The notes under the pieces: model-generated
The model's database searches: none
What the model was told of the DNA's origin: nothing
The model's input: the letters and a program-made list of their open reading frames with translations, nothing else
Translations under genes and position numbers: made by a program
In this document: positions 12,311 through 63,744 of the stretch, piece after piece
Layout: each line of letters opens with the position of its first letter
Numbering within the stretch: the first letter of the stretch is position 1
DNA from: an uncultured Gammaproteobacteria bacterium
GTDB taxonomy: Bacteria; Patescibacteriota; Microgenomatia; CAZETR01; Amesbacteraceae
NCBI GenBank assembly: GCA_964633995.1
Contig: CAZWKN010000001.1
Location: 134,527-198,526 of the forward strand
Length of the DNA: 64,000 nucleotides
Reading direction: 5' to 3'

Positions 12311-13270
12311 ATGACAAGCCGGCCTGATATCAAAGTTCCCATATTACCCTCTTTGGACGATTTTCTACTATTTCTTAAGACCCAAAATTATTCCGAAGAA
12401 ACAATTTACAATTATGAACGCGATCTTAAGCAACTCCAGAACTTTTTGGCAAGTTGTCAAAAGGAGTTTTCTGGCTTAGATAAGGCGTTAATTAATCAGT
12501 ATAAGGCCTACTTGGTCAGCAGGGATCGAGTTTTGCCGATTACGGGGCTTACAGCGGGTCGTAGGCTCGAACCACGCTCCTTAAACAGGAATTTATCGGC
12601 GATCCGTGCCTATTTAAGATTTCTGATTGATTTGGATATACCAGTGCCGATTCCACCCGATGCTTTGAAGATGGTTAAAACAGATAGAAAGCACCCGCAG
12701 GTAGCTGAACTTGCTGAATTAATAAAACTGATTGAGTCTCCTATGAAATTCGAAAAAGATGAATTAGTAGGCTTGCGTAACAGAGTTATGCTTGAAGTAT
12801 TACTGGCGTCCGGAATGCGCATTTCTGAACTGGTGTCAATTAATAAAAATCAAATTGATAGCACGGGAAGGATTTTCATTCGAGGTAAGGGTCGTAAAGA
12901 ACGATTTGTGTATTTAACTGAGCGGGCACTTTATTGGGTGAACCAATATTTAACCCGAAGACAGGATCTGGCTCCGGCTTTGTTTATTCCATATAGAGGA
13001 AATAATTCGGGAAAACAAATAAAGAGAATATCGACTAATTATCTTCAGGCAAAAATAAAGGAATACAGAGAGAAATTGCGAATAAACGTGCCTACATCTG
13101 CCCATTCATTGAGGCATGGGTTTGCGACTTATTTGGCGGAATCTGGGGCCAATCCTGCGGCTATACAGGTACTTTTGGGACACGAATCGTTAGACACTAC
13201 AACCAGGTATGTTCATGCATCGGATAAGTATGCGGAGGAAACACACCACAAATTTCACCCCGTGAAGTAG
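12311..13270 (+). CDS. Tyrosine site-specific recombinase (XerC/XerD family)
   Basis: 319 aa; N-terminal SAM-like core-binding domain; C-terminal catalytic HSLRHGFAT...LLGHESLDTTTRYVH (R-H-R-Y motif). Confidence 0.85.
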   Translation: MTSRPDIKVPILPSLDDFLLFLKTQNYSEETIYNYERDLKQLQNFLASCQKEFSGLDKALINQYKAYLVSRDRVLPITGLTAGRRLEPRSLNRNLSAIRAYLRFLIDLDIPVPIPPDALKMVKTDRKHPQVAELAELIKLIESPMKFEKDELVGLRNRVMLEVLLASGMRISELVSINKNQIDSTGRIFIRGKGRKERFVYLTERALYWVNQYLTRRQDLAPALFIPYRGNNSGKQIKRISTNYLQAKIKEYREKLRINVPTSAHSLRHGFATYLAESGANPAAIQVLLGHESLDTTTRYVHASDKYAEETHHKFHPVK

Positions 13271-35179: not shown

Positions 35180-35839
35180 TCATTGTGGAAAGAGTTTGGC
35201 TAGAGCGGCTCCTGCAGCATCGGTTTCTGCACGTTGTTTACTCGTTCCTGAGCCGGTTGCTATTTCTTTGCCCGCGACACTGACGCTAATGGAAAAATGT
35301 TTGGCGTGATCTGGACCGTCTGTGGCTATTATGGCGTAGATGGGCGTCCCCCATCCCTTGGATTGCGAGAGTTCCTGAAGTAAGCTTTTGGGGTCTTTGG
35401 TCTGAATGTTTGCGGTAAGTTCTTCGTCTGGAAAAATCTCTTGTAAATATGCTTGACAGGCCTCCAGGCCCGAGTCAAGAAAAAGTGCTCCAAGTACGGC
35501 TTCGAAGGTGTTTGCAAGAAGGCTGACATTAGTTCTGCCGCCGGAGTCTTCTTCGCCGTGGCTTAATAAGATTAGTTTATCAAGACCCAGGAAAAGCGAT
35601 TTATTTGCCAAAGACGAAGTTTGGACCAGAAAAGATCTGCGGCTAGTCATCTCGCCTTCGGGAATAGTAGGCAGAAGGACATATAAACGATGAGAAGTAA
35701 TAAGTGATAAGACAGAGTCGCCCAAAAACTCGAGTCGTTCGTTTGACTCTGTTTCAGAGTGTTCGTTGCAATAAGATCTGTGGATGAGTGCTTGGTGAAG
35801 AAGGGCGGGATTTTGAAAATAAGTAGCAAGAGGTTTCAT
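35180..35839 (-). CDS. rnc: Ribonuclease III
   Basis: 219 aa; NERLEFLGDSVLSL catalytic signature; C-terminal dsRBD (KQRAETDAAGAALAKL). Confidence 0.9.
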   Translation of the reverse strand: MKPLATYFQNPALLHQALIHRSYCNEHSETESNERLEFLGDSVLSLITSHRLYVLLPTIPEGEMTSRRSFLVQTSSLANKSLFLGLDKLILLSHGEEDSGGRTNVSLLANTFEAVLGALFLDSGLEACQAYLQEIFPDEELTANIQTKDPKSLLQELSQSKGWGTPIYAIIATDGPDHAKHFSISVSVAGKEIATGSGTSKQRAETDAAGAALAKLFPQ

Positions 35840-53284: not shown

Positions 53285-53533
53285 ATGCAGGATGTAAATG
53301 AAATGGTGGGGGTAGATGTGAGTTTTTGGGGAAGTAGGGTGGTTCCTACTAGATTTGTATGGGATGGCCGTAGACATGATGTAAAAAGAATAAATATGAA
53401 ATTTGAGAGAAAAAACGCCGGAAGAAGGTATTTGTGTTTTGCGTTAGACACGGGAAGTATGTTGGTAGAGCTTGCTATGGATCGGGAAGATTTGAGCTGG
53501 AGGGTCACACGGTGCGCACCATCTTACACGTAG
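53285..53533 (+). CDS. Small hypothetical protein immediately upstream of, and overlapping, dinB
   Basis: 82 aa from MQDVNEMVGVDVSFWGS...; overlaps the dinB start by 22 nt in another frame. Confidence 0.3.
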   Translation: MQDVNEMVGVDVSFWGSRVVPTRFVWDGRRHDVKRINMKFERKNAGRRYLCFALDTGSMLVELAMDREDLSWRVTRCAPSYT

Positions 53534-54720
53534 ACATGAATTCATATTTTGCGACGGCGGAGCAGCAGGCGAACCCTTTTTTGAGGGGGAAACCAATAGG
53601 GGTGATAAAAGCTTTGAACAGGGGGTGCATAATCGCAGCTTCAGTGGAGGCGAAAAAATTTGGAGTGAAAACCGGCATGAATGTGTGGGATGCCAAGAAG
53701 AAATGCCCGCATATTATTTTGGTACCGTCGGATATGGACAAATATTTTTCTATTACTTGCGGGATGGTGGAAATTTTGAAATCCTACTCCCCTGTCCTGG
53801 AAATTTTTTCAATAGATGAATGTTTTTTAGATGTGACGCAGACAAAAGGTTTATATTGTGGAGGTGCGTGGGAAATGGCTTTGGAGATAAAGAAACGGAT
53901 TAGGGAAGAGTTGGGAGAGTGGATGAAATGTTCGGTGGGGATTGGCTTTTCCAAAATTGTGGCTAAGTTGGCATCTGAAATGCACAAGCCTGACGGATTA
54001 ACATGGTTGACGGTTGATAACTATCTTGAAAAGACTGAAAGTGTAGAAGTTTCTGAGGTGTGTGGAATTGGGTTTTCCCGGACGGCGTATTTAAGAACCA
54101 GGGGGGCTTTTACGTTGGGACAAGCAAGAAGATTGGAGTTGCCTGAGGAGATAAAAGATTTGGTTTTTTTGAGAAACGATGACGATTTGGTAACTGTTTC
54201 GGAGTTGGAAGCTGCTAAGAGTGTGTCGAGAACATACACCACATATAAAACTCTAAACTCTAAATTCGAAATTCTAAAATTGGTGAGAAATTTGGTGGAA
54301 GAAGTGTGTGCCAAATTAAGAGAAATGGAAATGGTGGGGAGAACTTTTATTTTAAGTTTATCAGGTAACAGTTGCCAGTCCTGCCTGCCGGCAGGCAGGT
54401 TTTCAGTTAGGAAAACGATAAATACACCGACAGACGATCCCCTTCTTATTTATGATTTGTTCGTTAGGGAATATGAAAGAAATACAGTAACAGAAGTTAG
54501 GCAAGCGGGGGTGTGGGTGACAAATTTAATGGACAATGGCCAATTGACAATTGACAGGTCGAGAACAAGTTTGTTGGGGTCGGTAGATAAGGTCAATCAA
54601 AAATTTGGATTGTTTACGTTGTATCCGGCTAGTTTGTTGGGAAATGTTTTGATCAGACCTGAAGTGACTGGTTTTTTGGGAGATAAGTGGTATAGACTAG
54701 GTGGGCCGAAGAGGACTTGA
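53512..54720 (+). CDS. dinB: DNA polymerase IV (Y-family)
   Basis: GTG start, VRTILHVDMNSYFATAEQQ (catalytic Asp/Glu), SIDECFLDVT; the C-terminal little-finger region holds three short repeat insertions; the last 18 nt overlap tRNA-Leu(CAG). Confidence 0.8.
   Translation: MRTILHVDMNSYFATAEQQANPFLRGKPIGVIKALNRGCIIAASVEAKKFGVKTGMNVWDAKKKCPHIILVPSDMDKYFSITCGMVEILKSYSPVLEIFSIDECFLDVTQTKGLYCGGAWEMALEIKKRIREELGEWMKCSVGIGFSKIVAKLASEMHKPDGLTWLTVDNYLEKTESVEVSEVCGIGFSRTAYLRTRGAFTLGQARRLELPEEIKDLVFLRNDDDLVTVSELEAAKSVSRTYTTYKTLNSKFEILKLVRNLVEEVCAKLREMEMVGRTFILSLSGNSCQSCLPAGRFSVRKTINTPTDDPLLIYDLFVREYERNTVTEVRQAGVWVTNLMDNGQLTIDRSRTSLLGSVDKVNQKFGLFTLYPASLLGNVLIRPEVTGFLGDKWYRLGGPKRT
54380..54399. repeat. 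Perfect 20-nt palindrome CCTGCCTGCCGGCAGGCAGG inside dinB (in frame: SCQSCLPAGRF)
   Basis: Identical 20-mer at 63092-63111 next to the GIY-YIG gene. Confidence 0.7.
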
Positions 54721-54783: not shown

Positions 54784-54987
54784 AGAAATATGGCATTTGA
54801 GACTGCGCTTCTCAAATCCTCTTCGAGATCTTTGCGATGCTCGCTTTCAAATGCCTGGCAGCATTATATTTCTTTTTTTCCCATAGAAAAAGCCCCGGCT
54901 CCTGCCCGATGCCGAGGCTTTTATAATCCCGCCGCCAGACCTTTCGACCTAGCCGCAGAACCTAAATGCATTGTAGCCACTATAGGG

Positions 54988-56497: not shown

Positions 56498-56603
56498 GAA
56501 TCTGCGATTCGCGTTGAAAGGAACCTACTATTCGTTTACACTCATAGATCCTTTCATATCCCTTCGCCAATTGTTATTGGCTGGTGATAGCCGCATTGCG
56601 GTG

Positions 56604-56915: not shown

Positions 56916-57000
56916 GCCGAGGTGGCGAAATGGTATACGCAGGGGCCTTAAGAGCCCCCGAGGTTAACCCCTCATGCGGGTTCGAGTCCCGCCCTCGGCA
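56916..57000 (+). tRNA. tRNA-Leu (anticodon UAA)
   Basis: Manual fold: GCCGAGG acceptor, anticodon loop CUUAAGA, long variable arm, T-loop GGTTCGAGTCC. Confidence 0.85.
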
Positions 57001-57004
57001 CACA

Positions 57005-57142
57005 TGAAACAGATAATATTTGTCACGGGAAATCAGATGAAGGTTCGGCACGCTAATGAAGCAGTCAGGGATTTCGGTTATGAATTTGTAGCGAAAAAAT
57101 TGGAGATTATTGAGCCCCTTGAAGAAGAGTTTGTGAAGTGAC
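57005..57142 (+). pseudogene. Truncated Ham1/RdgB (non-canonical purine NTP pyrophosphatase) N-terminal fragment
   Basis: MKQIIFVTGNQMKVRHANEAVRDFGYEFV...stop after 45 codons; the Ham1 N-terminus (xIxFxTGNxxK) is recognisable, the remaining ~140 aa are absent and about 290 nt non-coding follow. Confidence 0.45.
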
Positions 57143-57455
57143 TCAAATCAGTGATGTAGCTCCCGACTGCCGGGTATTTGAGGTCTGCCAAAAGAGTTTA
57201 CGGAAACACCGCCTTCGTGATCAGCAGCTATTCTGTATCTGGTGCCACCGACTTGGCGTTCCCGAGTTATTTCTGATATTCCCCACTCCCTGAATTTGAT
57301 CTCGCTTCTGCTACAACTGCCTGAACCACGGTCCAAAGTGTCCTATTTCCTGCCATGTGGAGAAATATAACACGATGTGGAAAATTGTGCAAAAAGAACT
57401 ATATAAAAAAAGATATTAAGTAGATTATTGGGCTTTGATAGGCTATAATCTTTGG

Positions 57456-58085
57456 ATGGTTAAAAAGTTATTAATTACCGGCGGTATGCATGGAGACGAG
57501 TCTGAGACCGCAATATTGGTGCAAAAAATTATAACCGAAAATCCAGATAAGTTTGCCGGGGTGACATATATCCCCTTTTTGAGTCCGAGCGCGTGTGCGG
57601 CAAAGACCCGTAAAAATGCAAGAGGATTGGATTTGAACCGAAGTTTTATCGAATTATGCAATGACCCGGAGGTTTTAAGTGCTAAAAATAGTGTGAGGGG
57701 AAAAAAGTTTGATTTGGCAGTAGATTTTCATGAGGATAGAGATAGAAAACGGGGATTTTATGTTTATGATAATAATGGAGAAATGTCTGACGTGGAGAAG
57801 CTGCAATTGTGTGAGTTGGTGGAGCGGTGTGGATTGAAAATGTTTAGCGGGATAGATGACCCAGATGATATTCATTTGGGGGTAAAAGTGATTGATGGCT
57901 ATGTGCGGACACCTTTTGACAAAGCCGATCCAAATGCTGGTTTTTGGTCTACGTGGCTGATTGGGAGTGGGATATGCCCAAGGGTATTGGATCCGGAGAT
58001 ACCGGGTAAGGCTTCTTTGGAAACTAAGGAGCTGATAGTGGCTGGACTACTGGATTTGGTGTTGGGCTGGTATGAAAGAAACTGA
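57456..58085 (+). CDS. Succinylglutamate desuccinylase/aspartoacylase (AstE/AspA) family zinc hydrolase
   Basis: Start MVKKLLITGGMHGDESE (GGxHGxE zinc motif), later DFHED. Confidence 0.7.
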   Translation: MVKKLLITGGMHGDESETAILVQKIITENPDKFAGVTYIPFLSPSACAAKTRKNARGLDLNRSFIELCNDPEVLSAKNSVRGKKFDLAVDFHEDRDRKRGFYVYDNNGEMSDVEKLQLCELVERCGLKMFSGIDDPDDIHLGVKVIDGYVRTPFDKADPNAGFWSTWLIGSGICPRVLDPEIPGKASLETKELIVAGLLDLVLGWYERN

Positions 58086-58151
58086 CCTTTCGTAAAAGCT
58101 CAAGGATTCTTTCATATATCTCGCTATGCTCGCTATAAAATAGCTTTCTTT

Positions 58152-58258
58152 GCGGGTATAATTAATTATCGGGGTGTATCGGAAGGACTTGGGGCCCCTG
58201 CCCCAAAACTTCCTCTATCTCTCGCAAAGCTCGTGATAATTCATCGGCTTGAAAATTT
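58152..58258 (+). promoter_or_regulatory. Structured tRNA-leader repeat (copy C) upstream of tRNA-Pro
   Basis: gcgggtata...tcggaaggacttggggcccctgccccaaaacttcctctatctctcgc; same family as 63003-63069 and 63390-63456. Confidence 0.55.
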
Positions 58259-58330
58259 CGGGGTGTAATTCATCGGTAGAATGCTCGGTTTGGGACCGAG
58301 ATGCACGGGGTTCAATTCCCCGCACCCCGA
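58259..58330 (+). tRNA. tRNA-Pro (anticodon UGG)
   Basis: Manual fold: C1-G72 acceptor CGGGGUG/CACCCCG (typical bacterial tRNA-Pro), anticodon loop UUUGGGA, T-loop GGTTCAATTCC. Confidence 0.8.
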
Positions 58331-58367
58331 CAGATAGATATTTTTTTGATATATAGGTTAAAATCAA

Positions 58368-58838
58368 GTGGTGAGTAGCCTTGACGTATTATTGAGAAAA
58401 TCGGGTAAGACGTTTTTGTCGATTTTTGCGGTCTCAGCTATTTTGCCGGTGATGCTGTTTGGGGTATTGGGAAAGGGAAATTTCAACTTTTTGACCAAGG
58501 CTGATCAGCCAACAGAACTTCAGATTTGGTTTGAACCGGATGAAGTTGTTTCCCGAGTTGGTCTGCCTGTACGGGTAAAGGTAATGGGACTGTATGATGA
58601 CAAGGCCAGATTAATTCCCAGTGTAGAAGCGGTTGTGGATGGCGGTGGGGAGGTGGCGATTTTTCCATCAAAAATTGAATACGGGACAGCATTTACCGGG
58701 CAAGTAGTCTTGGGTGAAATTAGTTTGGTTTCAAAGTCTATGGGAAAGTATGAGGTAACAATTCCTCAGGAGAAGGTTTTTACCGGTTTGCCCAATTTGA
58801 CGATTTTGTCCAGCCCATTGACGGTTGTCGCTAAATAG
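58368..58838 (+). CDS. Hypothetical membrane-anchored protein at the head of the second pseudopilin operon
   Basis: 156 aa; N-terminal TM, beta-rich C-terminus. Confidence 0.4.
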   Translation: MVSSLDVLLRKSGKTFLSIFAVSAILPVMLFGVLGKGNFNFLTKADQPTELQIWFEPDEVVSRVGLPVRVKVMGLYDDKARLIPSVEAVVDGGGEVAIFPSKIEYGTAFTGQVVLGEISLVSKSMGKYEVTIPQEKVFTGLPNLTILSSPLTVVAK

Positions 58839-58845
58839 ATTTTTT

Positions 58846-59283
58846 ATGAAATTAAATCCTGCCCTGACACTTATAGAAGTACTTGTGGTGACGGCATTGA
58901 TTGCAGCTTTTTCGGTTGGGTCGTTGATTGCGTATTTTAATATTCAAAGCAAGCAGGCTCTGCAGTCGTCTGTGGATAGATTTGCCAACGTGGCCAAGAG
59001 TGCCAGAATTTACGCAAGGGAAAGCAAGGGAGGAAAGGCGTGGGGAGTTAAATCGGTTGATTCTAAATCTTATTCTTTAGTTTCCGGAAAAAAAGAGGCA
59101 CCTGTCTTGGAGGGGCAGTATGGACTTGAATCGCCCGTTGAGTTTGACTCGGGGTTTGAATTTTGGTTTAACCAGGGCGAGGGTACATTGAACGATCCGG
59201 TCTCGGTTAGGTTTAGGGTGGAGAGAAACGCTACGTATAAACAAGTGGATATTTCTTTGACGGGAGTCGTTCAGATTTTATAG
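58846..59283 (+). CDS. Pseudopilin (GspH-like)
   Basis: Start MKLNPALTLIEVLVVTALIAAF (prepilin N-terminus, Glu+5). Confidence 0.6.
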   Translation: MKLNPALTLIEVLVVTALIAAFSVGSLIAYFNIQSKQALQSSVDRFANVAKSARIYARESKGGKAWGVKSVDSKSYSLVSGKKEAPVLEGQYGLESPVEFDSGFEFWFNQGEGTLNDPVSVRFRVERNATYKQVDISLTGVVQIL

Positions 59284-59284
59284 T

Positions 59285-59773
59285 ATGAAAAAAGGAACTA
59301 CTCTATTAGAAGTATTAATATCGTTGGCCATCTTGGGGATTTTGATGGGAAGTTTTTTCCCGACAGTGGCTTTTTTGACACGCCAGTCAAGAAAATTTCA
59401 ATATGACAGTGAGGCTTCTTCTGTACTACAAGAAGGAATGGAAATTGCTTATAACGTTTTTTTGACTAACTGGAATGCAGTGAGTGACACAGGGACATAT
59501 CATCCGGTTTTGAATGCAAGTGTGGACCCTAACATATGGGGTTTGGAACCGGACGAAAAGATGGTTCGGTCGAGGTATACAAGAAAAATAGAGGTATTTC
59601 GGGTATGCAGAAATTTGAGTTCTGGTCAACAAAAAACAGGAGAATGTATAAGTGGTAACGACTATGATCTCAATAGCAGGTTAATCAAGACAACTGTTAT
59701 CTGGAAAGAAAATCAGGTAGATAGGGAAATTGCGTCCGAATTGTTAATTACTAGATTGCCGGATAATTTATGA
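59285..59773 (+). CDS. Pseudopilin (GspI/J-like)
   Basis: MKKGTTLLEVLISLAILGIL prepilin N-terminus. Confidence 0.6.
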   Translation: MKKGTTLLEVLISLAILGILMGSFFPTVAFLTRQSRKFQYDSEASSVLQEGMEIAYNVFLTNWNAVSDTGTYHPVLNASVDPNIWGLEPDEKMVRSRYTRKIEVFRVCRNLSSGQQKTGECISGNDYDLNSRLIKTTVIWKENQVDREIASELLITRLPDNL

Positions 59774-60222
59774 AGAAGGGATTTACATTAATAGAATTAT
59801 TGTTGGCTGTTTCTTTGTCGGGGGTAATTTTTGTCGTAGTGAGTTCCCTGCTTATGTTTGTGGTAACTTCTGACTTAAAAAATAAACGCCAAGAAGCCTT
59901 TGAACAAGTGAAAAACGATATGCAAATAGAACTATCGAACGCTGTAAGATGGGGGAAGGAGATCTCGTATAGTGCGGGAGAACTAGTGATAGATGGGGTT
60001 ACGTACCGACTGTTGGATGGGCGGATGTATAAAAATGCCGACCCGATCACATCAGCCGGAGTAACTATAAAAAGTTTCGGAATAAACAACTTCAGTAATG
60101 ACCTGCGGTATGTGAGCCTTAGTATTGACCTTGAGATGGAAGATAGAAGTTATGCACTATCAAACGACGTATTGACCATAGTTGTTTCTCAAAGGAAAAC
60201 GCAGTTGGGAGAGAGTATATGA
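59770..60222 (+). CDS. Pseudopilin (GspJ/PilW-like)
   Basis: MKKGFTLIELLLAVSLSGVIFVVV prepilin N-terminus; 4-nt overlaps on both sides. Confidence 0.65.
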   Translation: MKKGFTLIELLLAVSLSGVIFVVVSSLLMFVVTSDLKNKRQEAFEQVKNDMQIELSNAVRWGKEISYSAGELVIDGVTYRLLDGRMYKNADPITSAGVTIKSFGINNFSNDLRYVSLSIDLEMEDRSYALSNDVLTIVVSQRKTQLGESI

Positions 60223-61373
60223 GAAAGGGGTTTTCGAGTTTGATTGTTATCTTTGTTTTGTCTGTTGTAGCTATGTTTGTTTTTGTAGCCTGGCAATCAC
60301 GGATATTACTGTCTATTTCTAGGAGCCAGTCGTTATCTGATATGTTGAAATCTACTTACATTGCGGAATCGTGGATTAATGACGTGATAGCGCGATTTGT
60401 TGGCAATTATCCTGCTGCGTTTAGTTTTCCTTTTCTAAATACCAACACACTTGGGGATGGGACGGTGGTGAAGTCTGAAGGGGTGTCCGGCGAAGGAGTC
60501 GAAAAAATTAAAGTTACTGCCTCGAGGCAATTTGCATCCAGTGGAATAGAGCTGGAAAGACGGACTACGGCGTTGCCGGTGAATGCCATAGATAATGTAA
60601 AAATAGTTTTGAACATTGACTGCACCAGAAGCATGAACAACAAAGCAGATGCGGCGTGTACGACTGGGTGCACTAGCAGAATGCATGAAGCAAAGTTGGC
60701 GGCCAGAAATTTTGCAGAAGCCGTAAAACAATTTAATACCACACACGCCGCTCCGGTGTTGGAGTTGGGTTTATCGACATTTGCGTTAAATAGTAAATGG
60801 GTGACGGATTCGGTGGGAAATGAATTGGTCCCCGGAAGCGATATCGATAGAATTATAGAAGGTATTGATGATAACTTTTCGGACACTCAGGAGGACAGCA
60901 GGGCATGCAGATCCCCTCTTAACAGTGGGGCTACTAATATTGGTGTAGGGCTGGAGTTTATGAATAATTATTTTGTGGGCGTAGGAGCAAATATTCGGGA
61001 AAAAAGGATCGAAGTGGTAATTACCGATGGGGAGCCTAATTCGACTAACGTGAATGATTATTGTGGCGCTACCTCTTGCACTTTGCACTGTGCTGATGCT
61101 GCCAGAAGACTTCTGGCTTGTGATTTGGCAAAAGATAGTGTGTTGGTAAGTGAGGTGGGTAAGCTTGGTCTACGGCCGGAGGGGGTGGAGGCGTATTCGG
61201 TTACAATCTCTAATGAAGTAGCCCAGGAAACTAAGGATATTTTGACGAGTTATTCTAATCAGTATTTTGATTCTGCCAACGCAACGAAATTAAATGGGGT
61301 ATTACAAACATTGCTGTCACAAATAATTGAAAGTTCCAGCGGTATCACAATCAGGAGGGTGTTACCTTTATGA
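60219..61373 (+). CDS. Pilin-like N-terminus fused to von Willebrand factor A (vWA) domain: putative pilus-tip adhesin/GspK-like
   Basis: MRKGFSSLIVIFVLSVVAM pseudopilin-like N-terminus; IVLNIDCTRSMNN (DxTxS MIDAS-like) ... ITDGEPNST (vWA). Confidence 0.55.
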   Translation: MRKGFSSLIVIFVLSVVAMFVFVAWQSRILLSISRSQSLSDMLKSTYIAESWINDVIARFVGNYPAAFSFPFLNTNTLGDGTVVKSEGVSGEGVEKIKVTASRQFASSGIELERRTTALPVNAIDNVKIVLNIDCTRSMNNKADAACTTGCTSRMHEAKLAARNFAEAVKQFNTTHAAPVLELGLSTFALNSKWVTDSVGNELVPGSDIDRIIEGIDDNFSDTQEDSRACRSPLNSGATNIGVGLEFMNNYFVGVGANIREKRIEVVITDGEPNSTNVNDYCGATSCTLHCADAARRLLACDLAKDSVLVSEVGKLGLRPEGVEAYSVTISNEVAQETKDILTSYSNQYFDSANATKLNGVLQTLLSQIIESSSGITIRRVLPL

Positions 61374-62410
61374 AAAAGTTGTTAATTTTTTTATTGGTTG
61401 TGAGCAGTTTGGTAATGGTGGTTGGAAAATTAATTATGAAAAAACAAAGTGTGGATGTTTTACGAACCGATTGGACAAGGGGAAATGCCGGTGCTTCAGT
61501 CCTATTGGTTGAATATGGCGATTTCCAGTGTCCGTCGTGTGGGGCTTATTATCCGATAATAAAGCAATTGGAGACCGAGTATAAAGATAAATTGGCTGTG
61601 GTGTTTAGACAATACCCACTAGAACATGTGCATAAAAATGCCCTTGCTGCCGCAAAAGCTGCTGAGGCAGCGGGAGAGCTGGGTAAATTTTGGGAGATGC
61701 ACGATGTGTTGTTTGAGAAGCAAAAGGAGTGGGTTGATTTGGATAATCCCCTGCCAAAATTTAATGAGTATGCCCAGGGGTTGGGTCTTTCCAAAGATAG
61801 ATTTAACAGCTTGATGAATGACGCAAAAATAGAGACAAATATAAGAGCAGATATGGCAACAGGAGACAAGGCAAATGTAGAAGGAACCCCCACTTTTTTT
61901 GTAAACGGAAAGATAATAGGATTGCCGGGAGGGCTAGAGGGGTTTAAAAAAATTATTAATGGGGCTTCGGTCGATACTTCTGAAAAAGTACACGATCATT
62001 TCGATTTTGCAATGTATACAGATTTGGGTGATAAGATGAATTTTGCCAAGCCTGAATTTATGGAGAGGGACGAGGCTATTCACATGCATGACAACAATGG
62101 CGAGGTGGTGCATATTCATTCAAAAGGCGTGACGCTTGGTCAGTTTTTAAAATCAATCGGCGAAGAAAGTCCGGCAGAGGCGGCTTGGTATGTAAATGGT
62201 GTAAAAATGAACGGTCCCTTGGATAATTATCAGCCGAAAGATTTGGATAGAATTGTGGTTAATATTATGGGAATCGGGCAGACGTTAAATAATGCGGTGT
62301 TAGATAAGATGGTGTCGGACAAAGCCTGCATTTATTCCGAGAAATGTCCGGAACGGGGCAAACCTCCTACGGAAGAGTGTGTGGGTGGTTTGGGGACAGA
62401 TTGCAAATAA
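61370..62410 (+). CDS. DsbA-like thiol:disulfide oxidoreductase with extra C-terminal domain
   Basis: Signal/anchor; LVEYGDFQCPSCGAYYP (CxxC thioredoxin fold), TPTFFVNGK (cis-Pro loop region); about 150-aa C-terminal extension with a terminal Cys cluster. Confidence 0.65.
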   Translation: MKKLLIFLLVVSSLVMVVGKLIMKKQSVDVLRTDWTRGNAGASVLLVEYGDFQCPSCGAYYPIIKQLETEYKDKLAVVFRQYPLEHVHKNALAAAKAAEAAGELGKFWEMHDVLFEKQKEWVDLDNPLPKFNEYAQGLGLSKDRFNSLMNDAKIETNIRADMATGDKANVEGTPTFFVNGKIIGLPGGLEGFKKIINGASVDTSEKVHDHFDFAMYTDLGDKMNFAKPEFMERDEAIHMHDNNGEVVHIHSKGVTLGQFLKSIGEESPAEAAWYVNGVKMNGPLDNYQPKDLDRIVVNIMGIGQTLNNAVLDKMVSDKACIYSEKCPERGKPPTEECVGGLGTDCK

Positions 62411-62412
62411 AT

Positions 62413-62991
62413 ATGACTTCACGGACCCACGATTTGTTTGCTTTTACATTCCTGGCCGGAACCGTAGCTTATTTTCAATTGGGAGCTATGAGTTTGTCGA
62501 CTGCCGTAGTAGCTCTGGCGACTGGATTTTTGGGAGGGTTGGCGCCGGATTTAGACGAGCCTGGGTCTGCTCTGTGGCGAAGACTACCAGCTGGATCTGG
62601 ATCGATAGTAGGAAGAATAGTGGCCCCGATATTCGGATCACATAGGTTTATTTCCCATTCCATAGTTGGATTATGTTTGTTTGGATTTGGAGCTAAAAGA
62701 TTGTTGGATCTCGTATCCCCTGTAGTGCTAGTAGACATGAATGTGGTGTGGTGGGGCTTTGTGTTGGGAGTAGTTTCCCATTTGGTAGCAGATTCACTAA
62801 CCGTGGAGGGTGTGCCGTGGCTGTGGCCTTTGAAATGGAAATTTGGTTTCCCCCCATTTGCGTTTTTGCGAATAAAGACGGGAGGGTTTTTGGAAAAATT
62901 TTTGGTGTTCCCTGCTCTACTGGGTTTAAACGGAGCGCTTTTTTATTACCGTTATCAAATCTTTTTAAATTTTATCAAGGGGTTGGTATAA
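62413..62991 (+). CDS. Membrane-bound metal-dependent hydrolase (DUF457/YdjM-like)
   Basis: Start MTSRTHDLFAFTFLAG; H/D-rich motifs (HDLF, HSIVG, SHLVAD) across about 5 TM helices. Confidence 0.5.
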   Translation: MTSRTHDLFAFTFLAGTVAYFQLGAMSLSTAVVALATGFLGGLAPDLDEPGSALWRRLPAGSGSIVGRIVAPIFGSHRFISHSIVGLCLFGFGAKRLLDLVSPVVLVDMNVVWWGFVLGVVSHLVADSLTVEGVPWLWPLKWKFGFPPFAFLRIKTGGFLEKFLVFPALLGLNGALFYYRYQIFLNFIKGLV

Positions 62992-63002
62992 TAAGGGGGT
63001 TC

Positions 63003-63069
63003 GCGGGTATATCAGAAAGACTTGGAACTGATGTTCCAAAATTTCTTCTATACTCCGCTCGCCACGCTC
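63003..63069 (+). promoter_or_regulatory. Structured tRNA-leader repeat (copy A) preceding the truncated tRNA-Gly copy
   Basis: gcgggtatatcagaaagacttggaactgatgttccaaaatttcttctatactccgctcgc; inner and outer stems differ from copies B and C by compensatory substitutions. Confidence 0.55.
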
Positions 63070-63091
63070 GCGGGTATAGCTCAATGGTAGA
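63070..63091 (+). pseudogene. Truncated tRNA-Gly 5-prime fragment (nt 1-22 through the D-arm)
   Basis: gcgggtatagctcaatggtaga is identical to the first 22 nt of the intact tRNA-Gly at 63457, then diverges into the palindrome CCTGCCTGCCGGCAGGCAGG. Confidence 0.7.
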
Positions 63092-63111
63092 CCTGCCTGC
63101 CGGCAGGCAGG
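63092..63111. repeat. Perfect 20-nt palindrome CCTGCCTGCCGGCAGGCAGG at the junction of the truncated tRNA-Gly copy and the GIY-YIG gene
   Basis: Identical to 54380-54399 within dinB. Confidence 0.7.
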
Positions 63112-63123
63112 GCACAGTTTTCC

Positions 63124-63369
63124 ATGTATTTTGTGTACATAATTCAAAGCAGTTCAACTAAAAAGTTTTATACTGGAATTACTAACAACATTGACAGGCG
63201 GCTTGAAGAGCACAATCGGATTAATTCTAATTCAGTGGTATCTCGTGGGTTGACTGATTTCGAGTTGGTATATACAGAAGAAGTTTGTGATAGAATTTCA
63301 GCACGAAAACTCGAAAAATACTTAAAATCAGGAGCAGGTAGAGAGTTTCGAGATGAAATAGTAAAATGA
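63124..63369 (+). CDS. GIY-YIG nuclease-domain protein (free-standing homing-endonuclease-like)
   Basis: 81 aa; MYFVYIIQSSSTKKFYTGITNNIDRRLEEHN matches the GIY-(10-11)-YIG ... R ... E ... N catalytic motif order. Confidence 0.75.
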   Translation: MYFVYIIQSSSTKKFYTGITNNIDRRLEEHNRINSNSVVSRGLTDFELVYTEEVCDRISARKLEKYLKSGAGREFRDEIVK

Positions 63370-63389
63370 CGGTGACGCTCGTTTCACTC

Positions 63390-63456
63390 GCGGGTATATC
63401 GGAAGATCTTGGGGCCCCTGCCCCAAAACTTCCTCTATTCCCCGCTCGCTACGTTC
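63390..63456 (+). promoter_or_regulatory. Structured tRNA-leader repeat (copy B) upstream of intact tRNA-Gly
   Basis: gcgggtatatcggaagatcttggggcccctgccccaaaacttcctctattccccgctcgc. Confidence 0.55.
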
Positions 63457-63527
63457 GCGGGTATAGCTCAATGGTAGAGCACTAGTTTTCCAAACTAGGT
63501 ACAGGGGTCCGATTCCCCTTACCCGCT
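63457..63527 (+). tRNA. tRNA-Gly (anticodon UCC)
   Basis: Manual fold: GCGGGUA acceptor, D-arm GCUCAAUGGUAGAGC, anticodon loop UUUCCAA, T-loop GGTCCGATTCC, discriminator U. Confidence 0.85.
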
Positions 63528-63744
63528 CTCGTCTTTCGTCGATCCGTCGCCTTTGGCTAGGACGACTACGGACGATAGTGGGTGATATGTCTAGATCAGA
63601 AGCAGCTGCTCAAAGAGTAAGAAGAAAAAGAGTGGAGTCTGGGGTAATGAATTGATTGTTTTGGGATTGGCGGGTTTGCCGATTGCCGGCATTATTTCAT
63701 TTGTCATGGCCAATTCCAGTTGATAAAAACAAATAGTTCGATAC

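Follow-up and report, generated by a model that had tools for sequence, protein, structure and literature searches.

A probable miniature insertion element nested in tRNA-gene fragments of an Amesbacteraceae genome

Element X is a non-coding, hairpin-forming sequence that occurs three times in tRNA leaders of an uncultured bacterium assigned to the Amesbacteraceae (Patescibacteriota). The three copies lie in a stretch of 64,000 nt, referred to here as the window (assembly GCA_964633995.1, contig CAZWKN010000001.1, positions 134,527 to 198,526). An initial annotation described the hairpin as a structurally conserved element that begins with a mimic of a tRNA 5' end. X is probably a new, rare and unclassified miniature insertion element nested in fragments of tRNA genes, and the "mimic" is a piece of such a gene. 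Antisense copies, independent insertions, modular exchange of the hairpin and a limited distribution are the grounds on which X is read as a DNA insertion and not as an RNA device.

The arrangement is clearest before tRNA-Pro. As the initial annotation held, the hairpin and a copied tRNA 5' end are physically linked; the annotation's statement that the element before tRNA-Pro, too, starts with the first nine nucleotides of tRNA-Gly was a misreading. The nonamer in question, GCGGGTATA (58152-58160), lies 18 nt upstream of the start of X1 (58178) and overlaps a -10 box. The bases that abut the hairpin are CGGGGTGTA (58170-58178), the first nine nucleotides of tRNA-Pro itself. Because nucleotides 9-18 of tRNA-Pro resume directly after X1, the "mimic" is one half of a split 18-nt tRNA-Pro fragment, and when X1 is deleted in silico the joined flanks are identical to tRNA-Pro nucleotides 1-18 at 18/18 positions.

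Similar restorations are found outside the window. A scan of metagenome contigs matched at least 120 loci, at least four of which are true X loci (contigs L070, L100, L103 with two tandem copies, and L109); further copies in metagenome contigs are probably to be expected. The covariance model separates its members (the three window copies, those of L070, L100, L103 and L109, and L131/L132, contigs of the same organism as the window), which score 57-71 bits, from all other matches, none above 28 bits. At least eight copies in at least five loci occupy four different tRNA positions in both orientations. The window copies lie in sense at nucleotides 8/9 of tRNA-Pro and tRNA-Gly. In L070, X interrupts the anticodon loop of a tRNA-Ile fragment in antisense orientation, 23 nt upstream of an intact tRNA-Ile, and its removal leaves 47/47 identity to nucleotides 2-48 of that tRNA. 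In L100, X is antisense in the D-loop of a tRNA-Ile fragment that without it matches nucleotides 1-35 of the L070-type tRNA at 34/35 positions. In L103, X is antisense in the D-loop of a tRNA-like fragment; this fragment has a TATAAT box of its own and is repeated in tandem with it. These three contigs thus hold four antisense copies. L070 and L100 share the same upstream promoter region and tRNA-Ile 5' sequence and carry X at different sites, which indicates independent insertions. Positions 1-300 of L103 consist of tandem 124-nt units (TATAAT box, tRNA 5' fragment and antisense X), the contig ending inside the array; the duplication is evidently recent, its two units being almost identical.

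The features of the window leaders, and last an RNase III gene elsewhere in the window, are as follows, with strand where assigned.

58116-58142, + strand: solo X-tail-like motif ATATCTCGCTATGCTCGCTATAAAATA without hairpin I (family D17); its likeness to the tails of X1 and the L109 copy was judged by inspection
58155-58162, + strand: -10-like box GGTATAAT, overlapping GCGGGTATA; the same octamer stands before copy 2
58170-58177, + strand: tRNA-Pro fragment, nucleotides 1-8 (CGGGGTGT), the true copy-1 "mimic"
58178-58237, + strand: element X1, 60 nt, 71.4 bits, comprising ATC, an outer stem (58181-58185/58209-58213), an inner stem (58189-58195/58200-58206) with loop CCCT, TCTATC (58214-58219) and the tail CTCTCGCAAAGCTCGTGAT
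58238-58258, + strand: tRNA-Pro fragment, nucleotides 9-18 (AATTCATCGG, 58238-58247), and an 11-nt spacer
58259-58331, + strand: intact tRNA-Pro(UGG)
62964-62992, + strand: promoter-like site TTTAAA-17-TATAAT with TG extension, 10/12 matches, 10 nt before the tRNA-Gly fragment
63003-63010, + strand: tRNA-Gly fragment, nucleotides 1-8 (GCGGGTAT), the copy-2 "mimic"
63011-63069, + strand: element X2, 59 nt up to the following tRNA +1, 58.2 bits, with divergent hairpin I and tail ACTCCGCTCGCCACGCTC
63070-63123, + strand: displaced tRNA-Gly 5' half (nucleotides 1-22, palindrome, nucleotides 23-36 with a 1-nt deletion)
63092-63111: 20-nt palindrome CCTGCCTGCCGGCAGGCAGG, interrupting the displaced half at nucleotides 22/23
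63124-63369, + strand: open reading frame (ORF) for an 81-aa GIY-YIG nuclease (PF01541, E = 9.6e-15), starting in the anticodon loop of the displaced half
63376-63397, + strand: tail-like motif CGCTCGTTTCACTC followed by tRNA-Gly fragment nucleotides 1-8 (family D4)
63390-63397, + strand: tRNA-Gly fragment, nucleotides 1-8, the copy-3 "mimic"
63398-63456, + strand: element X3, 59 nt, 68.3 bits, with tail TCCCCGCTCGCTACGTTC
63457-63528, + strand: intact tRNA-Gly(UCC)
35180-35839: RNase III gene

The existence of three hairpin copies was confirmed. A degenerate hairpin pattern matches the window three times (58189, 63022 and 63409) against 0.01 expected, and a covariance model of the 42-nt hairpin module scores its copies (58178-58219, 63011-63052 and 63398-63439, + strand) at 58-71 bits, the next-best window match reaching 10.9 bits. 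The extended hairpin is predicted in all three at -24.8 to -28.8 kcal/mol, with z-scores of -2.5 to -5.6. The hairpin is real and not an assembly artefact, since independent Logan contigs of run SRR8893623 (L131 and L132, which break within the repeat) carry the same sequence. The stem changes are compensatory, as described earlier: the inner stem is TTGGGGC/GCCCCAA in copies 1 and 3 and TTGGAAC/GTTCCAA in copy 2, and the outer stem changes in parallel from GGAAG/CTTCC to AGAAA/TTTCT. The common layout that had been proposed holds for the hairpin; CCGCTCGC is not present in all copies, copy 1 having CTCTCGCAAAGCTCGTGAT instead.

Hairpin I of X3 is identical to that of X1, 5 kb away, at 39/42 positions and to that of X2 at just 28/42, while the flanks of X2 and X3, which sit within a 91-nt direct repeat made with a GIY-YIG cassette (family D2), are identical at 46/49 positions. 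The hairpin module has thus been exchanged independently of its surroundings.

In full-length alignment, X runs from an invariant TATC through hairpin I (a 5-bp outer and a 7-bp inner stem) to an invariant TCTAT and a pyrimidine-rich stretch. A variable 3' portion of 15-30 nt follows, often with a second hairpin (such as TTTAACC/GGTTAAA in L103), and ends in (C)GTGAT. The total length is 60-72 nt; X2 and X3 are 59 nt when measured up to the tRNA +1. The ends TATC...GTGAT are kept across genomes and the tails vary. TATC, AAAA, TCTATC and GTGAT are the conserved unpaired motifs. The tails of both tRNA-Gly copies end in GCTCGCGGGTAT, not GCTCGTGAT, and therefore run directly into the tRNA +1; a tRNA-Pro-like arrangement shortened by a small deletion across the shared GCTCG.G motif would account for this end. 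Motifs like the X tail (CTCGC..GCTCGC) also stand alone, without hairpin I, at 58116-58142, 63376-63389 and 54834-54852, always beside tRNA promoters or leaders, and the tail may be a separate repeat module.

Covariation was computed on seven distinct X sequences from the window and the metagenomic contigs. Stem cells are paired in 97.6% of cases, six of the 12 pairs show double changes, none is half-changed, and none of 500 shuffles equalled the covariation. The outer stem takes the forms GGAAG/CTTCC, AGAAA/TTTCT, GAAGC/GCTTC, GAAAG/CTTTC and GCAGC/GCTGC. The claim that the hairpin is under structural selection is supported, and the covariation is stronger in the larger alignment. There are no G-U cells at all; double changes without G-U pairs are what would be seen if folding were required of both DNA strands or in either orientation, and a DNA-level hairpin explains the covariation equally well as an RNA structure does. 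The initial annotation had been staked on two expectations, further copies upstream of other tRNA genes and covariation in a larger alignment; the second was borne out, and the other tRNA genes of the window are preceded by no further copies.

The 5' half of X (58179-58201 and 63399-63421) is 74-78% complementary to the anticodon-arm region of tRNA-Leu(UAA) at 56939-56961, including the GGGGC stem (18/23 for X3). The resemblance may be coincidental, or it may point to an origin of hairpin I from tRNA sequence; as a derivation of hairpin I from that anticodon arm, the 18/23 antisense similarity (I8/I11) was too weak to use.

X is found in few places. The window contains 11 tRNA genes, including tRNA-Pro(UGG) and tRNA-Gly(UCC), and X is present at two of these loci and lacking at nine. 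The Leu-Pro-Gly operon of a Levybacteria contig (L133) has no X, including before its tRNA-Pro and tRNA-Gly. Among GTDB species-representative genomes, the pattern TTGGNNCN{3,6}GNNCCAAAAYTTYYTCTA, which would miss outer stems of the GCTTC/GCTGC type, gave 10 matches without outer stem, tRNA fragment or nearby tRNA; all are chance-like and none is a true X. Viral contigs (searched with two patterns), phage records and plasmid records gave no X match. Rfam returned only tRNA matches at gathering score and nothing over X at E up to 10. Of 8000 candidates returned by a six-frame concatenated peptide query for ORFs reading through X, not one reached E <= 10; a 47-aa ORF of the window that spans X3 had 0 matches among 1.84 billion representatives. 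Exact matches to window proteins came only from short Logan contigs of the same organism, which break inside X.

The fragments in which X lies are associated with a second kind of element. The truncated tRNA-Gly of the initial annotation is indeed a partial gene; in fact it comprises nucleotides 1-36, is interrupted by the palindrome at nucleotides 22/23, and is followed at once by the 81-aa GIY-YIG ORF that separates copies 2 and 3. Homologues of the 81-aa protein are common in genomes of the candidate phyla radiation (CPR). The order in the cassette is tRNA nucleotides 1-22, the 20-nt palindrome after ...TAGA, nucleotides 23 to about 36, the GIY-YIG ORF and the intact same tRNA. This architecture (63070-63528 in the window) is repeated for tRNA-His, Asp and Val at nine further loci, eight of them distinct because L136 and L137 are the same contig (L133 855-1236; L134 2990-3373; L135 2940-3323; L136 2940-3331; also L166-L170). 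The cassette ORFs encode 81-111 aa and start in the anticodon loop; the palindrome is near-invariant and always present in the displaced halves at nucleotides 22/23. None of the nine other cassette loci carries X, according to a model scan of L133-L138 and sequence inspection of L166-L170.

The window cassette duplication starts at the 8-nt fragment, not at the downstream tRNA +1, whereas at four other cassette loci it starts at the tRNA +1. The duplication in L167 and L168 takes in the 3' end of the ORF as well and thus amounts to tandem amplification. The X-bearing fragment of L100 extends precisely to the end of the anticodon, which is what a cassette relic that had lost its ORF would be expected to show. 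By its layout, the cassette looks like a homing cassette that targets tRNA genes and restores its own target. With its catalytic domain, tRNA association and duplicated target, the GIY-YIG ORF has the features of a Seg-like free-standing cassette and may be classed as one. SegB is a free-standing GIY-YIG enzyme found in tRNA gene clusters of phages T4 and T6 (PMC2330249, PMC13096335), and in T6 it cuts tRNA genes and causes tRNA segments to be amplified in tandem (PMC13096335). The literature search found no paper describing the CPR cassette or X.

A mechanism can be proposed from these parts. Cassettes consisting of a GIY-YIG gene and a 20-nt palindrome would break up a tRNA gene and bring in a new 5' half, leaving dead tRNA 5' fragments as by-products just upstream of the working gene. 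X would then insert inside such a fragment and cut its first 8 nt, the "mimic", off from the remainder. The hairpin would be kept because copying or mobilisation needs it, through an enzyme or the repair of nuclease-induced breaks. In the window, X would be transcribed from GGTATAAT promoters as part of the pre-tRNA leader and discarded by RNase P, and its pyrimidine-rich tail would pair with the G-rich fragment, which probably stops both from disturbing tRNA folding. A bolder version, which is doubtful, takes X to be an undescribed tRNA-gene-specific class of miniature element spreading through the breaks and repair synthesis caused by tRNA-targeting GIY-YIG nucleases of CPR bacteria, or else a co-opted "insulator" whose tail captures the G-rich fragment during transcription, which would keep the fragment from taking the 3' acceptor strand and the tail from trapping the genuine 5' end. 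In both variants, selfish cassettes would repeatedly renew the tRNA loci of these reduced genomes, and hairpin modules would neutralise the debris.

At the RNA level, X is very probably transcribed in the window, because the tRNA fragments begin 7-10 nt after -10 boxes. The octamer GGTATAAT, read as a -10 box, recurs before copy 2 at 62985-62992 within the 10/12 promoter-like site, and the equivalent place before the tRNA fragments is taken by GCGGTATAAT in L100 and GCAGGTATAAT in L103. Upstream of the box at 58155-58162 the -35 is weak, and a simple promoter scan gave no call there. For the tRNA-Gly leader with its fragment, the predicted minimum-energy fold pairs the 8 nt with the X tail and leaves the cloverleaf normal; with the fragment removed, the tail is predicted to capture the true 5' strand. 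The predicted acceptor pairing probability is 0.16 without the fragment, 0.53 with it, and 0.98 with almost no leader. For tRNA-Pro, the fragment is predicted to compete for the 3' acceptor strand at equilibrium (0.58-0.93). This competition, and the best folding being leaderless, make the arrangement look like a tolerated burden. It does not look like an adaptation in these models, and the fragment and the tail, by pairing with each other during transcription, are probably both neutralised.

As an insertion element X fits no known transposon class, lacking long inverted repeats, a target duplication and a conserved target, and this and several other observations weigh against the reading. Miniature inverted-repeat transposable elements (MITEs) have terminal inverted repeats of at least about 10 bp, and X has a match of 3 nt only (ATC/GAT). 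Removal of X leaves no duplicated bases, the boundary being uncertain by a single T. The left flanks of six sites (GTGT, GTAT, TTAT, CGTT, CATT and GAAT) have only the final T in common, and no target is conserved beyond it. No transposase or dedicated recombinase lies beside any copy in the window or the short contigs. A Pfam scan of about 60 of the 74 candidate window ORFs of at least 80 aa found a single recombinase, an XerC/D-like integrase at 12311-13270; no TnpA, TnpB or RAYT gene was among them, and no autonomous insertion sequence sharing the ends of X was seen in these ORFs or the short contigs. The scanned ORFs are those of an ordinary chromosome (DnaB, GyrA/B, aminoacyl-tRNA synthetases, type IV pilus genes, RNase III). 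The sample of copies is small, and the evidence for excision comes from paralogous or related tRNA sequences, no same-species empty-site allele having been seen. All insertion sites except L109 are tRNA-derived DNA, which could also mean a tRNA-linked function; the window copies are all in sense, at the same tRNA position and next to promoters; the tails are predicted to pair with the fragments; and once X is present, the tRNA-Gly fragment is predicted to be needed for correct folding. The MITE-like feature that X does show is its occurrence at several unrelated sites that look empty after its removal.

The sense orientation of the window copies, within about 10 nt of a -10 box and at one tRNA position, would also be expected of a functional pre-tRNA leader module, in which hairpin and fragment-tail stem form a 5'-terminal hairpin of about 20 bp that stabilises or insulates the primary transcript or directs its processing; it might be a determinant for RNase III or RNase P, or a kinetic decoy keeping the tRNA 5' strand free. 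Strong stem covariation, the predicted fragment-tail stem with an intact tRNA-Gly cloverleaf, the low acceptor pairing without the 8 nt and the RNase III gene of the window all agree with such a module, which is nevertheless quite unlikely. The four antisense copies split fragments at other positions, X is absent from most tRNA loci of the window and from the orthologous tRNAs of another CPR genome, the stems lack G-U pairs, Rfam has no match, and the predicted foldings favour tRNA-Gly without its leader and set the tRNA-Pro fragment in competition with the acceptor strand. Measured as a cis-acting leader RNA, X shows covariation but neither a fixed sense orientation nor presence before orthologous or many tRNAs. 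The processing or antitermination device of the initial annotation is not supported, in view of the antisense copies, the presence at two of 11 tRNA loci only, the X-less Levybacteria operon, the missing G-U pairs and the lack of a U-tract in X1 and X3. For the same lack, these two copies were not called as intrinsic terminators or attenuators, a candidate for which only the A+T-richer X2 passed a loose scan.

Of the options offered earlier, an attachment-type site carrying a tRNA end comes nearest to the evidence. X could accordingly be an att-like recombination or junction site, or the scar of a cassette or gene-block insertion at tRNA 5' ends, that does not move by itself. It is always joined to tRNA 5' fragments; each of the two window leaders with X borders a gene block on its right side (57003-58150 and 58332-62991), and these blocks separate tRNAs that are contiguous as Leu-Pro-Gly in L133; X2 and X3 are separated by the GIY-YIG cassette, whose duplication starts at the 8-nt fragment; and the unpaired TATC, AAAA, TCTATC and GTGAT would suit recognition by a protein. 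This explanation is unlikely, as no copy has a recombinase beside it, the nine other cassette loci are without X, X interrupts fragments internally and not at a junction with foreign DNA, and no repeated core sites like those of integron attC or of tyrosine recombinases are visible. That the copies are plain local duplicates, immobile and functionless, arising by segmental duplication and gene conversion with compensatory changes by chance, is most improbable. The 91-nt direct repeat around X2 and X3 and the recent tandem duplication in L103 speak for it; the reading is already contradicted by relatives in at least four other metagenomic contigs at different tRNAs, orientations and positions, by six double-changed pairs with no half-changed pair and 0/500 shuffles, by the restoration of tRNA sequences and by the near-identity of hairpin I in X1 and X3 at different tRNAs.

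Several further identities were tried for X and rejected. It is not an integron attC site, its ends being TATC.../...GTGAT with no RYYYAAC/GTTRRRY motif on inspection, nor a Helitron or IS91-type insertion, since its flanks are not consistently A^T or GTTC/CTTG. A tRNA intron (group I or bulge-helix-bulge) does not agree with antisense copies in truncated fragments, a length of 60-72 nt and the lack of a ribozyme match. An evolved tRNA-like minihelix is contradicted by the 3' part of X1, which is a generic X tail also found in L070 and L109. An outward promoter at the right end (GTGATAAT) holds for X1 only.

Taken as an insertion element, X has several partial counterparts. Repetitive extragenic palindromes (REP/BIME), Rickettsia palindromic elements and the Correia and ERIC MITEs are likewise short, non-coding and hairpin-forming, have a number of diverged copies in each genome and subfamilies set apart by compensatory stem changes, and are tolerated when co-transcribed with host genes. 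X differs from these in lacking long terminal inverted repeats, target duplication and a GTAG-type REP head, in lying only in tRNA-derived DNA (except in L109), and in its very low copy number without a visible partner transposase or RAYT. Palindrome-associated elements derived from IS200/IS605, which are substrates of HUH/Y1 enzymes, also lack inverted repeats and target duplication and have hairpins near both ends, and stems without G-U pairs are compatible with folding of a DNA strand. X, by contrast, is much shorter; its two hairpins are unlike each other, the spacing of hairpin I, 3-4 nt from the left end, is atypical, no conserved target of 4-5 nt was found among the six flanks but only a T, and no TnpA or TnpB gene was seen. 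In classical attachment-site duplications, it is the 3' end of the tRNA that is duplicated, on either side of a large integrase-bearing element. Partial tRNA genes at such sites resemble the present case in that a copied tRNA end beside an intact gene is an insertion footprint and no evolved mimic; here the fragments are of the 5' end, lie 0-47 nt from the gene and are interrupted by a hairpin element of 60-72 nt.

The cassette resembles SegB of T4 and T6 in having a small GIY-YIG gene among tRNA genes and duplicated or amplified tRNA parts with junctions at the tRNA 5' end (PMC2330249, PMC13096335). By this analogy, a SegB-like process plausibly makes the fragments in which X lives. The likeness concerns the protein-coding cassette and not X, the host is a CPR-type bacterium, the cassette ORF comprises the catalytic domain only (81 aa), and the displaced half carries the 20-nt palindrome at nucleotides 22/23. 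Group I introns, which occur in tRNA genes of Patescibacteria (PMC13011429), share host group and target with X; X is far shorter, has no Rfam ribozyme match, occurs in antisense, and lies in non-functional fragments and not in an expressed tRNA body.

Other repeats surround these loci. The palindrome CCTGCCTGCCGGCAGGCAGG is also present at 54380-54399 within an ORF for a DinB/ImpB-family polymerase (53434-54720), in the IMS_C domain, where the frame is intact and the peptide reads ...SCQSCLPAGRFSV...; Rickettsia palindromic elements likewise lie inside coding genes. A different hairpin insert, CCTACCCTTCCGAAGCCCATAGGGCGAAAGAAGG (variant GCTTGCCCTTCCGAAGCCTTGGCGAAGGAGGG), interrupts other tRNA 5' fragments at about 2090-2130 of L100 (minus strand) and about 300-350 of L103; in L100 it occupies nucleotides 22/23, the site of the palindrome. 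The working tRNA-Ile of L100 (2291-2364) is unlike its two dead upstream fragments, which match the tRNA-Ile of L070, and this suggests that the 5' part or the whole of the resident gene was replaced by a foreign allele. The genes for tRNA-Leu(UAA), tRNA-Pro(UGG) and tRNA-Gly(UCC), contiguous at 98-351 of the Levybacteria contig L133, are split in the window (56916-63528) by one block with a short ORF and an AstE-like gene and another with pilin-like genes, a DsbA-like gene and YdjM, each block ending at an X-bearing leader with its own -10 box.

In the leader of tRNA-Leu(CAG) (54792-54855, minus strand), an inverted repeat with 25-nt arms lies upstream of the gene and holds TCAAATCCTCTTCG, a 13/14 copy of the T-arm/acceptor 3' part of tRNA-Leu in opposite orientation, so that the leader RNA would be complementary to the 3' end of its own tRNA. 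A repeated hairpin, TGAAAGGA...TCCTTTCATAT, is found at 56515-56559, between tRNA-Gly(GCC) and tRNA-Phe, and at 58073-58117, where it runs across the stop codon of the AstE-like gene immediately ahead of the tRNA-Pro leader; the two copies are 73% identical. Directly after tRNA-Gly, the sequence at 63529-63600 (CTCGTCTTTCGTCGATCCGTCGCCTTTGGCTAGGACGACTACGGACGATAGTGGGTGATATG) contains many inverted repeats and has GTGATAT at its end. This motif, which may be an extended -10 box, also precedes or follows tRNAs in L167 and L169.

For annotation, the case of X illustrates that a covarying "mimic" of a tRNA end can resemble a regulatory RNA and be better explained as debris of mobile DNA; covariation by itself is no proof of RNA function. 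In the tiny genomes of CPR/Patescibacteria, tRNA genes appear to act as hot spots for the turnover of selfish DNA, as indicated by palindrome-bearing GIY-YIG cassettes, arrays of dead tRNA 5' halves with their own promoters, and nested hairpin elements. If the way in which X moves were found, it would represent a new kind of very small mobile element without inverted repeats or target duplication, and it would also offer a test of how far pre-tRNAs tolerate competing copies of their own 5' ends.

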